DNA of 60,787 nt. Origin: Bdellovibrionota bacterium. Lineage in GTDB: Bacteria; Bdellovibrionota_C; UBA2361; OMII01. Made by a program: the position numbers and the translations under genes. Below are positions 1,688 through 5,414 of the stretch, one piece after another; within the stretch, counting starts at the first letter, position 1, and each line of letters begins with the position of its first letter. The notes under the pieces are model-generated. The model saw only the letters and a program-made list of their open reading frames with translations, searched no databases and was not told the DNA's origin. The stretch spans positions 1 through 60,787 of the forward strand of contig JBILFA010000006.1 of NCBI GenBank assembly GCA_044351795.1, in the 5' to 3' direction.

Positions 1688-2671
1688 CTACATCGTCTCG
1701 AATTCGTCGGTCGTCTCTGACGAGCCCGCGAGCGGGTTGCCTTGCTCAAGTTGATATGGGGGTAGGTCCGCCCGCCCTTTTTGAATCCAAAGCGCCTGAG
1801 ACCGATCTCGTTGAAGTGTGGCGAGTGTGCTCAGCGCATTTTGTAGCGCCGCGTGGGTCGGATAATACTTCGCTGGCAGCGCCACTTCGGGTGCTTGTCC
1901 GGTAGTGCGAATAGATTCGCACCACCGAGCAGCCATCTGCACGTCCCGTGCGATCTCCATTTCCTCGCTCGAGCCTGTTTCCATCAGTCCGCTGAGAGCG
2001 CTCGCTATAGCGGTCGATCTCATGATTCCGAAGCCCAAGCTTTGTACAAGCACTGAGCCGATCTGGATGCGCGTGCACCCCCACTGCTGTATCTCCAGCT
2101 CACAGTTCCAGCTGAGCCGCTGTTTCTTGAGAAGTCTCCTATAATCCTGAAATCCTTTTGAATCGTGACGGAGAAAGGCTGTCACTCCAAGGATCGGAGT
2201 TACAGCTTGAAGAAGACTCAGCCCTCCACCGATGGCCGGAATCGCTCGCCCGAGCAGGAGGCCCATATTGATGCTCTCCGCCAAGGAGTCTTCTATGAAC
2301 TTGATCTCCTCTGCATCGCAGAACGATTGGGCTCGTCGCCACAGGTAAGTAACCGCCAAGATCGACGCTACCTCGTGAGGCGAGAATACTTTCAGGACAC
2401 TCAATTCGGGGGTTCGTGATGTGCTTGATATGACAGAAGGTTCGAACGCATAGGCAGCGAAGTAGAAGGGGGCGAAGAGCGAGGGGCTCCTCAAGAGACG
2501 CGCCATTTGGTGACGCGTCGAGCCTGATATCTGAGACTCTCCCTTTGCGTGCGCACTCAATAGAGCTCTAACGGCTGTTACGAAGGGTGCCGGGGGTTGG
2601 CCGAATACTCCCGCGTACTGCCGCGTGTATTCCCAACTTTGGGCGCTCATGCTCTCGTTTGTGTCCGACAT
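1688..2671 (-). CDS. Hypothetical protein, degenerate HDOD-like helical domain
   Basis: 327-aa ORF. 'ELEIQQWGCTRIQIGSVLVQSLGF' resembles the HDOD C-terminal E...G.H.EIG..L...W.F motif. Confidence 0.5.
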   Translation of the reverse strand: MSDTNESMSAQSWEYTRQYAGVFGQPPAPFVTAVRALLSAHAKGESQISGSTRHQMARLLRSPSLFAPFYFAAYAFEPSVISSTSRTPELSVLKVFSPHEVASILAVTYLWRRAQSFCDAEEIKFIEDSLAESINMGLLLGRAIPAIGGGLSLLQAVTPILGVTAFLRHDSKGFQDYRRLLKKQRLSWNCELEIQQWGCTRIQIGSVLVQSLGFGIMRSTAIASALSGLMETGSSEEMEIARDVQMAARWCESIRTTGQAPEVALPAKYYPTHAALQNALSTLATLQRDRSQALWIQKGRADLPPYQLEQGNPLAGSSETTDEFETM

Positions 2672-2682
2672 CTTGCTAGGAA

Positions 2683-2710
2683 CTATCGGCTAACCAATCG
2701 ACTAGGTTTA
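2683..2710 (-). promoter_or_regulatory. Sigma28 (FliA)-like promoter of the HDOD-like gene
   Basis: Minus strand reads TAAA-N16-GCCGATAG (consensus TAAA-N15-GCCGATAA), 11 nt upstream of the ATG at 2671. Confidence 0.55.
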
Positions 2711-2819
2711 CAGTGCGTTTGGTCGAAAAGAGGAATTTCTTGCAGGCTATACCGGTGAAGTCTTGTGGACGACGCCCTATGATACACACGATGGACATAT
2801 GTGCTCTTTGACGAAATGT

Positions 2820-3356
2820 CACTTTACTAGAGCTGTGCTAGAGAGGAGACAAGAACGGTTTCTGTAGTGTTTTCGCCGTCATAGCCCGCGAAATCGAACA
2901 GCACCTAGCGCAGAGCTTGCTATTTTTGAGTGAAACAAATCATCGATTTCGCGTTAAAGGGGCTTTCTTGATCAGAGCAGTGCGGAGATGGCCGAGGACG
3001 GTTAATCGGCGTGTGCTGATGATGTGTCACCCGCTCTGAGTGCCTTCCGGACCGAGAGGATCAAGATGACTCACCTTACAGTGAGTGATGATGCGGTCGG
3101 CTGATGCCGATCAGATTCGGCACGGATGCGCTCGTGTGTGGAAAAGGTGAAGGCGACCAAAGTGTTGCTTTTTTCGTGAATGCAGCATGTCACATCACCT
3201 ACAAAGTGTTTCTACCGGGTGAGCAAAGCTCCTTGAAGAAGAGCATTATGCACTCGGATGTAACAGTAGTTCGATTCAAGGTGACATAATGATCTTGTCG
3301 GTCGAGTCCAACGAGTGAACTCCATCGTTACGTAGAGCGGCGCTTCTTTTGATCAA
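2820..3356 (+). ncRNA. Candidate structured RNA, module A
   Basis: Pairings: CGCGAAATCGA 2887-2897/TCGATTTCGCG 2943-2953 (11 bp perfect); 2968-2977/3347-3356; CCGCTCT 3031-3037/AGAGCGG 3334-3340; 3050-3063/3290-3303 (13 of 14 bp); ACTCAC/GTGAGT; TGCCGA/TCGGCA; ATGTCAC 3187-3193/GTGACAT 3281-3287; CCGGGTG/CACTCGG. No credible CDS. Confidence 0.4.
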
Positions 3357-3514
3357 CCGAAAAAACCGGAACAGCGATTTTCACGCGCAAAAACTACGAT
3401 TTTCAATTTGAGTGCGCGATGTGAACAAAAATTTCGGCGAACGAAAAAACACATGTGGAAAAATAAGTGCGCCCCTTTCATTTGAATCGTCATCACACAA
3501 GTTGAAATAAGTAC

Positions 3515-3543
3515 TTGCCAATCTCAAAAAGCGGTGCCAACCT
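3515..3543 (+). promoter_or_regulatory. Possible sigma70 promoter for RNA module B
   Basis: TTGCCA-17 nt-CAACCT with TG at the extended -10 position, preceded by an A-tract-rich stretch (about 3357-3510). The -10 is a weak match. Confidence 0.3.
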
Positions 3544-3553
3544 GCACCAAGAG

Positions 3554-4060
3554 TTGCGCTGAGCACCGTCAAGTACTCGCAGAGTAGTTTGCGAGGAGGA
3601 GGTGCTCGACAGGAGGAGTCGTTACTGAATTCTTCTCGTCACGAGGCGTAACGACGTGACTCACGAGTAGTAGAAGAGTGAGAAGCGGAGTTCGATAAAG
3701 GTTTGTTGAGAGCGCCTGATTTCTATCGAGACGTCGTGTAAAGGTGTTCCTCAAAGCTGCAAGTAAAATTCTTTCTTGCGAAGTTTTCAAAACTGAGCGC
3801 AAGATAGAGGTAGGCAGCTAGTAAAGTGCAGTAAATGTTAAGCTCTGTTTCTTATCATCCGATAGGAAGGAGCAGACAGACTCACGAGTGATAATGCGAA
3901 GCATCGTTCACTACTGAAGAGCTTTAGCCGCACGTGAGAAAACAAGTTTCGGTCAAGCGATGCTTGCGGGTTTGGGGAGAACTTCTCGCTGAAATCCGAT
4001 TAGTAAAGTGAGATCGGTAAACAAAGGTAGATGAGAGACTGGGGACGCTCGGCCCTCATC
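3554..4060 (+). ncRNA. Candidate large structured RNA or very long 5' leader, module B
   Basis: TTGCGCT 3554-3560/AGCGCAA 3796-3802 closes a multiloop containing GAGCACC/GGTGCTC, CTCGCAGA/TTTGCGAG, GTCGTTAC/GTAACGAC, CTCAC/GTGAG, TCGATA/TATCGA and GCAAG/CTTGC. Downstream are TTCTTATC/GATAGGAA, AAGCATCGTT 3899-3908/AGCGATGCTT 3956-3965, CCGAT/ATCGG and GATGAG 4030-4035/CTCATC 4055-4060. Loops are purine-rich. Confidence 0.55.
3839..3865 (+). promoter_or_regulatory. Sigma28-like promoter inside module B, oriented toward the Lys-rich micro-ORF
   Basis: TAAG-N15-TCCGATAG. It overlaps a hairpin, so the match may be incidental. Confidence 0.3.
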
Positions 4061-4079
4061 AACATTGGAGAAAAAGAAA

Positions 4080-4166
4080 ATGGCAGCTAAGAAACCAGCA
4101 AAGAAAGCTACGAAGAAGACCGCTCCTAAGAAGAAGACCACTAAGAAGGCTTCTAAGAAGAAGTAG
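4080..4166 (+). CDS. 28-aa Lys-rich histone-H1-like micro-protein (MAAKKPAKKATKKTAPKKKTTKKASKKK)
   Basis: Translated by hand; it is below the ORF-track cutoff. GGAG SD followed by an A-rich spacer, 14 of 28 residues Lys, strongly biased AAG/GCT codons, and a terminator directly after. Confidence 0.8.
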   Translation: MAAKKPAKKATKKTAPKKKTTKKASKKK

Positions 4167-4187
4167 TCAGACGTTTGTAGCGTCTAC

Positions 4188-4228
4188 AAGGGCGTCTTCA
4201 GTCTTCGTAGGCTGGAGGCGCTTTTTTT
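4188..4228 (+). terminator. Intrinsic terminator after the micro-ORF
   Basis: AAGGGCGTCTTCAGTCT-loop-AGGCTGGAGGCGCTTTT stem (G-U pairs on the + strand) running into a T7 tract. Confidence 0.8.
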
Positions 4229-5414
4229 ATTTATATTTCAGGTAATTAAGGGTACTGCAGGCGGGCGAGGGCATCACTGGGGAAAGGCACAGCTCAGCGC
4301 GCATGTTCCGCTCAGGCTCTAAGCACCCTCCTGCAGTCTCAAGGTATGATTGAATGTCCTCGCGGGCTGCCTGAGTGAATGAGACGGTTACTCCCCGCGG
4401 TGCCGGATTCATCACAGAGCGCTTACCTGTGTCGTGAACGGCGCTTAGATTGTGGCCTATCTCGTGCGCTACCAGCACCGGTTGGAGAGCTCTGCTGACC
4501 GCTTGCGAGATCCCGACATTGAACCGACCCTGCTCCATACATGCTGTCCCGACATACGCGAGTCCGATCGTATTTCCATCCAAGTGTTTACCGGTGAAGA
4601 GGTGGTGTACGTCCGCAGCCAAACGTCCCCGTCGTGGTTGGCGACGGAAGCTCTCGAGGACGTTTTCTGCGGTTGCTATGGAAACTTGTGCGGAGCCTTG
4701 ATTGGTGACCCGCAAAGATATCGGCTTGATTCGGATACCGAGATCGGCTGTATACAAAGTGTCGGCAGCACGGAGAGCAGAGCGAATATAGTTGCGAGTC
4801 TGAGGGCCGAATCTTCGAAAAAATTCATAATCAGCTTCTACATCGACCTCGAGGACTCTTAATGGACGAACGGGCTGCATACGACCCCACTCCCTCGTCG
4901 AAGTGTGTGATACGTGCGGGGATGTGCTTACTGCGCTCTGTGCTCCTACTGCACAATTGATTGATACTAGGGGAGCCGAAGCCAGGATTGCAGGGCCAAG
5001 CTCGAGCCCTTCGGCGTTTTTGCTGAAAGAGAACTGCATCGAGTGGGGGCGACCCCGACGGCGGGAGGAAAAATAGAGGAACCCCATATCGCCGAAGATC
5101 GAGAGTGAAGCTTTTGCGCTCGTTGCGCCCAACGAGCGGCGCATTGATGCCCCGATGTAATGTCTCTCAGATTCGGTGTCGCTTTGGCTGGGGTCCGGTC
5201 TGAAGCTGAACGTGTGCACGCCTTCCTTCGTTTCAATGCTCAGGAAGAGTGACTGCTTGGAGTTGGTGTCGGCGAGTCTTTCCAGTGTACCCCGGAGAGG
5301 GGCGGCAGTGGCAGGGAGTGAGCTCGCGAGAGGCACAACACAGAACAGTGCCAGAAGCTTGGACAAGGAACGCAGCACCTGTGATTTCGATAGGTTGAAA
5401 CGGAATTTACGCAT
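4227..5414 (-). CDS. Secreted M12B/reprolysin-like zinc metalloprotease
   Basis: Signal-like N-terminus, 'LEVDVEADYEF', 'TIGLAYVGTAC', HEIGHNLSAVHD zinc motif, Met-turn 'SVM'. Confidence 0.85.
   Translation of the reverse strand: MRKFRFNLSKSQVLRSLSKLLALFCVVPLASSLPATAAPLRGTLERLADTNSKQSLFLSIETKEGVHTFSFRPDPSQSDTESERHYIGASMRRSLGATSAKASLSIFGDMGFLYFSSRRRGRPHSMQFSFSKNAEGLELGPAILASAPLVSINCAVGAQSAVSTSPHVSHTSTREWGRMQPVRPLRVLEVDVEADYEFFRRFGPQTRNYIRSALRAADTLYTADLGIRIKPISLRVTNQGSAQVSIATAENVLESFRRQPRRGRLAADVHHLFTGKHLDGNTIGLAYVGTACMEQGRFNVGISQAVSRALQPVLVAHEIGHNLSAVHDTGKRSVMNPAPRGVTVSFTQAAREDIQSYLETAGGCLEPERNMRAELCLSPVMPSPACSTLNYLKYK

Follow-up and report, generated by a model that had tools for sequence, protein, structure and literature searches.

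A long structured leader RNA upstream of a lysine-rich micro-ORF in an uncultured freshwater lineage of Bdellovibrionota

The stretch of DNA analysed here (the window; 60,787 nucleotides [nt] of a Bdellovibrionota bacterium, GenBank assembly GCA_044351795.1, contig JBILFA010000006.1) carries at 3551-4079 on its plus strand a noncoding, highly structured RNA of ~530 nt, which precedes a lysine-rich micro-open reading frame (micro-ORF). The RNA is real and conserved, it is linked to the ORF, and it is present in RNA libraries. It is a well-supported addition to the short list of bacterial structured RNAs of more than 300 nt, from an uncultured freshwater lineage, and the ORF of 24-28 amino acids (aa) that it accompanies is itself conserved and selected, though no Pfam or NCBIfam family fits it. 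We propose, at a probability of about 0.5, that the leader acts in cis, as a protein-binding platform that controls the stability of the peptide mRNA and how much peptide is made from it.

Dense plus-strand structure and the lack of a credible ORF at 3554-4060 had been pointed out in an initial annotation made from the letters of the window, and both observations hold. No conserved ORF lies there, and the plus strand has a predicted minimum free energy (MFE) of -175.5 kcal/mol against -150.4 +/- 6.7 for 100 dinucleotide shuffles (z -3.75; 0/100 shuffles as low), compared with z -1.69 and 7/100 shuffles as low for the reverse complement. Ten representative full-length homologous leaders gave sense-strand z values of -3.1 to -8.9, with 0/30 shuffles as low in each, and the antisense strand folded more weakly than the sense strand in all ten. 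Among the 36 genomes of the window's family (its own included), 34 carry the RNA element, at one copy per genome.

Hairpin architecture and its conservation

Comparison supports an architecture of local hairpins in a chain instead of a single 250-nt multiloop. Its parts, with the other elements of the unit, are as follows; P1-P5 and the 5' domain are taken from domain folds, and H2 from folds.

3500..3520, plus strand: conserved upstream block and -35 hexamer TTGCCA (3515-3520), kept in 33/33 family sequences
3535..3543, plus strand: extended -10, with TG at 3535-3536, one base, and CAACCT at 3538-3543; conserved block GGTG[TC]CA[AC]C[CA]T
3551..3824, plus strand: variable 5' domain, hairpins P1-P5
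3561-3567/3601-3607, plus strand: P1, with tip 3576-3583/3588-3595
3612-3619/3629-3636, plus strand: P2
3660-3664/3678-3682, plus strand: P3
3706-3717/3742-3754, plus strand: P4
3755-3760/3814-3819, plus strand: P5, with 3774-3780/3798-3804
3825..3873, plus strand: region holding the single-stranded conserved block GCAGUAAAUGUUAAG at 3828-3842
3842-3846/3869-3873 (outer) and 3849-3856/3861-3868 (inner), plus strand: H1, loop AUCC at 3857-3860
3881..3938, plus strand: H2, a long three-tier hairpin, basal stem CUCACG/CGUGAG at 3881-3886/3933-3938
3939..4017, plus strand: region holding the linker AAAACAAGUUU that precedes H3
3949-3954/4012-4017, plus strand: H3, closing UCGGUC/GAUCGG, with inner stem 3967-3973/3992-3998
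4018-4029, plus strand: conserved linker UAAACAAAGGUA
4030-4035/4055-4060, plus strand: H4, the hairpin next to the Shine-Dalgarno (SD) sequence, tip 4039-4043/4048-4052, then AACAUU
4067-4070, plus strand: SD sequence GGAG, 9 nt before the ATG, invariant in 33/33 sequences
4080..4166, plus strand: micro-ORF for the 28-aa peptide MAAKKPAKKATKKTAPKKKTTKKASKKK, TAG stop at 4164-4166 included
4169-4173/4181-4185, plus strand: small hairpin ahead of the terminator
4188..4228, plus strand: intrinsic terminator, 17-bp stem at 4188-4225, then a T run

Two long-range helices in the initial annotation fared less well than its general description of a folded RNA. A 7-bp stem at 3554-3560/3796-3802, thought to close a ~250-nt multiloop, appears in the MFE fold of the window, yet its 5' strand is altered, with no compensating change, in the window's three closest relatives (L006, L007 and L033), and it also competes with 3554-3560/3825-3831 in the domain fold; the multiloop was not borne out. 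The 10-bp helix 3899-3908/3956-3965 is possible in the sequence, is absent from the MFE fold and conflicts with H2 and H3, which comparison supports; on our reading of the alignment, L007 breaks it at two positions.

Homologues folded domain by domain showed the same hairpin order in all eight sequence subgroups. The 5' domain consists of P1, P2, P3, the linker GAAGUUAAAGAAAGGUU, P4 and P5, and was 72-325 nt long in the 23 of 33 sequences that were folded; its P1 stem is GCUCACU/AGUGAGC in most relatives and GAGCACC/GGUGCUC in the window's subgroup. A core of ~260 nt is present in all 33 sequences. It begins with the single-stranded block GCAGUAAAnGUUAAG, followed by H1, whose nnCC loop is closed by UAUC/GAUA; after H2 come the linker AAAAGUUU, H3 closed by CGGUC/GAUCG, the linker GUAAACAAACGUAGA and H4, and the 3' end reads AUCAACAYUGGAGAAAA-AUG. 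H2 keeps its position and shape among relatives while its basal stems are unrelated in sequence (CCCCGGU/GCCGGGG, CCCUCAA/UUGAGGG, GGCCC/GGGCU, CUCGCAC/GUGCGAG, CCCU/AGGG, GCCC/GGGC). The leader alignment is a series of conserved blocks interspersed with variable segments, and single-base indels are scattered through it.

Global RNAalifold found almost nothing in the 33-sequence MAFFT E-INS-i alignment (-2.9 kcal/mol) and 7 pairs only in alignment A1, because sequence alignment misplaces the variable hairpins; we therefore used per-domain folds, two covariance models (R1 for the 3' domain, R2 for the H1 core) and subgroup alignments. In the R1 alignment of 34 sequences, from which the counts for the 3' domain are taken, 89.8% of cells at the domain's 17 pairs are paired as against 80.3% in shuffled alignments (0/500 shuffles reach this), the covariation score is 0.314 as against 0.158 (0/500), slid controls score 0.025-0.059, and 9 of the 17 pairs have changed on both sides. 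The closing pairs of H3 covary (R1 column 11-72: UA 18, UG 10, GC 4, CG 1), and at H4, which is helix 2 of R1, 7 of 10 modelled pairs have changed on both sides, with combinations such as CG 12, UA 8, UG 7 and GC 6. The 13 pairs of H1, counted in a plain MAFFT alignment, are 76.5% paired (69.0% shuffled; 0/500) with a covariation score of 0.345 (0.228 shuffled; 0/500; slid controls 0.098-0.178), and 8 have changed on both sides. RNAalifold on ten full-length leaders of two subgroups returned 116 pairs, 26 of them changed on both sides. Covariation among homologues had been suggested as a check on the initial annotation, and compensatory changes in the 3' domain and H1 do exceed shuffled and slid controls, in figures that overstate independence, the 3' domain alignment having been fitted to its model and the homologues being related to one another. 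More weight falls on the slid controls, and on stems that are unrelated in sequence, than on the pair statistics.

At its 3' end the leader places a conserved structured element against the ribosome-binding site (RBS), H4 ending 6 nt before GGAG; in other families, too, a hairpin stands directly before the SD. The SD has a predicted unpaired probability of 0.85 in the window and a mean of 0.61 over the 33 sequences (0.36 for the leader), and in three subgroups the value exceeds 0.8.

Several further ways in which the RNA might act were examined and set aside. Occlusion of the SD as a switch was rejected as inconsistent across homologues, being confined to most of subgroup D together with L025 and L026, at non-homologous sites. 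Pairing between leader and ORF was examined because CUU-rich stems could pair with the AAG-rich ORF, and was rejected because the predicted pairing is low (0.00-0.26) and lies at non-homologous sites. The motif GUAAA occurs 29 times against 12.5 expected over 13 leaders; the case for a multi-site platform is weak because the counts stem from homologous conserved blocks and one leader has no copy. Possible mimicry of 23S rRNA amounted to two short resemblances that are within chance expectation.

Promoter, transcript and RNA-library coverage

In each of the 33 family sequences the promoter block, leader, SD and ATG follow one another in the same order, so that the RNA occupies the position of a cis-regulatory 5' leader, running with conserved structure from a promoter to a start codon on the same strand. 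The TTGCCA that had been called promoter-like in the initial annotation is a -35 hexamer conserved in every one of these sequences, at 333-618 nt from the ATG. Throughout the family the block has the form ...CATCAAATAAGTACTTGCCAA-N11-GGTGTCAMCCTG; the window has GTTGAAATAAGTACTTGCCAA where the family consensus of the upstream part is CATCAAATAAGTACTTGCCAA, and its -35 and -10 elements are 17 bp apart (TTGCCA-N17-TGn-CAACCT). Within the window's genome the block has 1 exact match, and 7 matches with two mismatches compared with 10 for a reversed control.

The promoter reaches beyond the family. In a phylum sample of 124 genomes the exact pattern CATCAAAN{5,6}ACTTGCCAA was found once each in 23, with 1 control match; these genomes belong to five families of the order, and 0/33 genomes from other orders had it. 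The looser form TTGCCA-N17-(TG)n-CAnnnT is also present in 9 sequences from six other families, the -10 region in other families reading TGGCAATGT, TGGCAGGAT or TGACACTGT; L031 (f9) has a divergent -35. From the position of this promoter we infer a transcription start site (TSS) at ~3550, and an RNA-library contig of one relative begins ~14 nt downstream of it.

The -10 region of the window also forms an inverted repeat (GGTGC-CAACCT-GCACC, 3532-3549), reported by the terminator scan as a terminator-like site on the minus strand. Only the closest relatives of the window share this repeat, which may be a regulator site or a chance occurrence.

Downstream, the SD, the ORF and the terminator are as initially described, with GGAG at 4067-4070, the ATG at 4080 and a GC-rich 17-bp stem with a T run directly behind the gene at 4188-4225. 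The terminator hairpin and T run are kept in the alignment of relatives, with compensatory changes. The terminator scan reported no plus-strand terminator-like site between 3550 and 4188, and the prediction of a single ~680-nt unit is further supported by contigs that bridge leader and ORF or run from the equivalent of ~3564 to 4192.

These contigs come from metatranscriptomes, which had been named as a check in the initial annotation: four runs, from four different studies, have contigs on the leader and its unit. A 243-nt contig (3826-4068) and a 170-nt contig (3866-4033) are 100% identical to the window, and a 205-nt contig (3895-4098) bridges the leader and the start of the ORF. A 627-nt contig of a relative (34 differences) covers 3750-4192 with 186 nt further upstream, starting at the equivalent of ~3564 and ending in the terminator, an extent that fits the predicted unit. 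The contigs are supportive of expression of the unit, not proof of it; their absence over 3200-3749 and 4212-4500 was not counted as evidence.

The micro-ORF, its relatives and their distribution

The lysine-rich peptide was found in 27 of the 28 loci first collected and in all nine added later. Family ORFs are 72, 75, 78 or 84 nt long, and the window's peptide is ~50% Lys with a charge of ~+14. As measured on these sequences, the micro-ORF is under purifying selection as a coding sequence: the pooled ratio of nonsynonymous to synonymous polymorphism (pN/pS) is 0.22, all ORF indels are multiples of three, and variation is concentrated at third positions of Thr, Ala and Ser codons. Lysine is encoded across the ORFs by AAG 285 times and by AAA 25 times. 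Relatives have low-complexity repeats rich in K, A, P and T with a variable number of repeats. Searches of Pfam (E up to 1) and NCBIfam (E up to 10) matched the peptide to 0 families, a weak test for short low-complexity sequences. The peptide would be expected to bind nucleic acid, composition being the sole argument.

In four of the five pattern-bearing families (f12, f17, f21 and f10) we read the sequence downstream of the promoter. In five genomes of f12, f17 and f21 the promoter drives leaders of ~170-230 nt, counted from the inferred TSS, and behind each come a hairpin, UUGGAGA and a K/R-rich ORF of 26-30 aa. In f10 (L221 = G084:C10 and L220 = G082:C220) an arginine/lysine-rich protein of ~165 aa stands behind the same promoter; the f10 leaders are ~190-420 nt long, with L220 at ~420 nt. 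Because the same promoter precedes shorter leaders and K/R-rich ORFs of 26 to ~165 aa across the order, we take the product to be a histone H1-like basic protein, and what is constant in the order to be a gene for a histone-H1-tail-like basic protein with a long leader. The ~165-aa protein of f10 places the window's peptide at the short end of this series, in which the smallest protein and the most elaborate leader are those of the window's family.

A departure within the window's own genus was seen in G043 (L072, G043:C3 1116-1607), where the promoter and hairpin H1 are kept, the 3' domain has diverged, and an AKK/TAKKS-repeat ORF of >100 aa, containing a run of N, stands in place of the micro-ORF.

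The RNA is confined much more closely than the promoter. R1 and R2 each matched once per genome in 33 of the 35 other genomes of the family (the R1 match in G043 being marginal), always just upstream of a K-rich ORF. Among 55 genomes of the order's other 20 families R1 gave 1 marginal match and R2 none, and over the 124 genomes of the phylum sample R2 gave 1 marginal match (E 0.039) among the 88 outside the family. A public record labelled Bdellovibrionota bacterium (L123) is a true R1 match at 67.4 bits, and was the single one of 80 that R1 confirmed among the matches listed in a loose pattern scan.

In DNA searches, the unit was found once in the window's own genome; the ORF region was matched in 23/24 genomes of the same genus and in 4/16 genomes of other families in the order, and the whole of 3458-4230 in two genomes at 80-83%. 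A DNA search of the entire family matched 33/36 genomes, the window's included. In most genus members 590-750 nt separate the end of the upstream gene from the ATG. A peptide-profile search of the order matched 23/91 genomes and missed 14 genomes of the family, mostly known carriers; it is thus insensitive and uninformative on other families. Of the DNA runs in which half or more of the sampled words were found, six of six carry the label lake water metagenome.

Proposed function, known systems and neighbouring genes

In the model that we favour, transcription would start at the conserved extended -10 promoter and yield a monocistronic mRNA of ~680 nt, with 3551-4079 as its 5' leader and a 28-aa histone-H1-tail-like peptide as the product of its sole ORF. 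The leader would fold independently into about nine hairpins (P1-P5 and H1-H4) with conserved A-rich single-stranded linkers between them, leaving the SD exposed 6 nt past the last hairpin, and an intrinsic terminator would act behind the stop codon. H4 and its conserved flanks beside the SD would most likely be the operator, bound by the peptide itself, as the most economical option (autogenous feedback), or by another RNA-binding protein. The cis-regulatory role and the feedback loop are what we infer from a pattern of conserved H4 and flanks by the SD, conserved loops and A-rich linkers, which fits a protein-binding platform. The initial annotation put forward an RNA-peptide module and, as an alternative, an elaborate regulatory leader; the alternative fits better, the RNA being always directly upstream of the ORF, once per genome, and the same promoter driving shorter leaders before homologous K/R-rich ORFs across the order.

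Several observations weigh against a cis-acting platform. The promoter is absent from a sigma-70 consensus scan because CAACCT fits only 2/6 positions, and the TSS is therefore placed by conservation alone. No expression platform (alternative terminator or SD-sequestering helix) was found in the leader; with the SD mostly open and no internal terminator, the platform of a classical riboswitch or attenuator is not visible. A leader six times the length of its ORF, with conserved loops and linkers, would be equally expected of an RNA functional in itself, and binding of the RNA by the peptide is a candidate interaction argued from charge alone. Two of the RNA-library contigs lie within the leader alone; neither transcript ends nor strand or level can be read from contigs, and DNA may be present in RNA libraries. 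Finally, two genomes of the family, G045 (83% complete) and G007 (90% complete), have neither an R1 nor an R2 match.

Much of this would suit a dual-function RNA of the RNAIII or SgrS type, a trans-acting RNA or a self-encoded ribonucleoprotein (RNP), in which the 530-nt domain has a job of its own and the micro-ORF shares its transcript; the RNA might scaffold the polycationic peptide or form condensates with it, or might regulate through its conserved loops and linkers. The ~9 hairpins fold autonomously from the ORF, the conserved parts are loops and linkers rather than stems (the nnCC loop of H1 with UAUC/GAUA, GCAGUAAAnGUUAAG, CGGUAAACAAACGUAGA), no platform that occludes the SD was found, the peptide carries a charge of ~+14, and the leader-only contigs in two RNA libraries add a weak point. 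We nevertheless consider this reading unlikely, if the best of the alternatives. The RNA never occurs apart from the ORF, being single-copy and always adjacent, and the much shorter leaders of other families, which barely match or miss R1 and R2, yet precede a homologous ORF, which suggests that it is the ORF, rather than the RNA, that stays constant. Given its composition, the peptide would bind mostly without specificity, and no target or seed has been shown, no target search having been made. A narrower form of this reading, a self-contained RNP or condensate module in which the ~530-nt RNA, elaborated within one bacterial family, is the specific partner, chaperone or sink of its self-encoded, polylysine-like 24-28-aa peptide, we regard as doubtful. 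If true, it would mean that RNA and peptide act jointly, for example in compaction of the nucleoid or of polyphosphate or in trans regulation, beyond the tuning of translation.

A sensor leader, riboswitch-like or a thermometer, would let the hairpin chain sense a small molecule, an ion, a polycation or temperature and so alter translation or decay of the peptide mRNA. Its 5' untranslated region (UTR) position, the conserved unpaired nucleotides at junctions and the lake-water habitat, where temperature shifts are plausible, speak for it; we think it improbable all the same, since relatives keep no compact multi-way junction and do not share the long-range closing stems, neither an alternative terminator nor an SD-sequestering helix is present, Rfam has no riboswitch or thermometer match, and some species do without the 5' half (leaders of 297-398 nt). 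That there is no RNA element at all, the leader being a missed protein gene (sense upstream ORF or antisense ORF) or an artefact of a purine-rich spacer or pseudogene, is very hard to credit: antisense stop-free frames of 39-131 aa do overlap the leader in 33/33 sequences, the plus strand is purine-rich and a decayed aminopeptidase gene lies just upstream, but the antisense frames lack protein similarity between subgroups except the close pair F-G (10 matches, all F-G), so that an antisense or upstream ORF was rejected for want of a conserved frame, single-base indels are scattered in the alignment, composition is controlled by the dinucleotide-preserving shuffles, compensatory pair changes are present, and the pseudogene remnant does not reach the promoter, ending upstream of it at ~3300.

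The leader has no counterpart in Rfam 15, which includes OLE, GOLLD, ROOL, HEARO, raiA, 6S, RNase P, tmRNA, SRP and riboswitches. At the gathering score neither the whole window nor any of 20 homologous loci gave a match, in keeping with the novelty initially claimed; in E-value mode (E up to 10, 2500-4400) scattered, implausible weak matches appeared, none of them recurring in the leader. A full-text literature search, with supplementary files outside it, returned no description of this RNA or peptide, and term look-ups in the discovery papers PMC5737381, PMC11109978 and PMC8632094 likewise found none, though a motif of this sort might appear in supplements. Elements of this general kind are known, as a long structured leader or a dual-function RNA before a gene for a small basic protein; what is new is the RNA family, together with how large it is compared with the ORF and its association with a polylysine-like micro-protein.

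Autoregulatory leaders of the ribosomal-protein type (the L1, S15, L20 and thrS operators) are 50-200 nt long. Like them, the present leader has a structured element with a conserved, covarying hairpin immediately before the SD, and the gene behind it encodes a very basic product, with binding predicted here; it differs in its length of 300-580 nt, in an unstructured peptide of 24-28 aa and in that mimicry of a primary target is not known. The 5' UTRs of Escherichia coli rpoS (~570 nt) and cspA are long translational-control leaders, the RBS of rpoS being occluded and opened by small RNAs (sRNAs). The likeness lies in the great length and the structure of the 5' UTR, in its serving a single gene and in post-transcriptional regulation, which is proposed here; in contrast, the SD of our leader is predicted to be open in most homologues, and there is no sequence or Rfam relation.

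RNAIII of Staphylococcus aureus, an Rfam family, encodes the 26-aa delta-haemolysin (hld) in an ORF near its 5' end, and its 3' hairpins act on targets through C-rich loops. It resembles our RNA in a length of ~500-700 nt, in its many hairpins and in encoding a peptide of 26-28 aa, whereas here the ORF is at the 3' end and there is no Rfam match at gathering score. OLE, GOLLD, ROOL, HEARO and raiA are of the same size class, also with many covarying helices and environmental, uncultured hosts; unlike them, this RNA is fixed upstream of one ORF and confined to one family.

For the peptide, the KPAA repeats of AlgP and PhaF and the chlamydial proteins Hc1 and Hc2, of which Hc1 is also controlled after transcription, by an sRNA, share a low complexity rich in K, A, T and P and a variable repeat number; our peptide lacks any folded domain, is far shorter and has no Pfam or NCBIfam match. 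AlgP KPAA peptides bind DNA, as do the KPAA repeats of PhaF, and in both the number of repeats varies (PMC9239181). What compacts the nucleoid so extremely in non-growing cells of Bdellovibrio bacteriovorus is still unknown, and no such peptide appears in the nucleoid-protein lists published so far (bioRxiv 10.1101/2025.09.24.678257). A histone H1-like peptide under tight control in related bacteria is, speculatively, a candidate nucleoid-compaction factor. With a leader about six times the length of its ORF, the unit offers a compact system for studying how a polycationic histone-H1-tail-like micro-protein is controlled or exploited.

The leader lies in a stretch with no long ORF, bounded on one side by a minus-strand ORF whose end is at 2671 and on the other by the ATG at 4080. 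Much of the part at 2672-3500, which is outside the RNA, is explained by the remnant of a decayed aminopeptidase gene, which we take from sequence motifs to be of M29 type: two collinear tblastn pieces at 3119-3300 (plus strand; 46% and 50% identity, E 0.002 each) correspond to the C-terminal portion of a gene that most relatives retain intact upstream of the leader. On the minus strand, 4227-5414 is a convergent gene for an M12B reprolysin-like metalloprotease, which is likewise seen downstream in L009, the sole relative with ORFs read; a fragment of an S8 subtilase gene is at 1-1563 on the plus strand. Both flanks of the leader-ORF unit are thus genes of secreted-protease type. A palindromic repeat of ~45 nt (core GTTTTCGCCGC...GCGGCGAAAAC) at 2857-2911 on the plus strand occurs at five places in genome G000 with ~80% identity (also contigs C151, C119, C129 and C91 = L002-L005) and is present in two relatives; it could be a repetitive extragenic palindromic (REP)-like sequence or a fragment of a mobile element.

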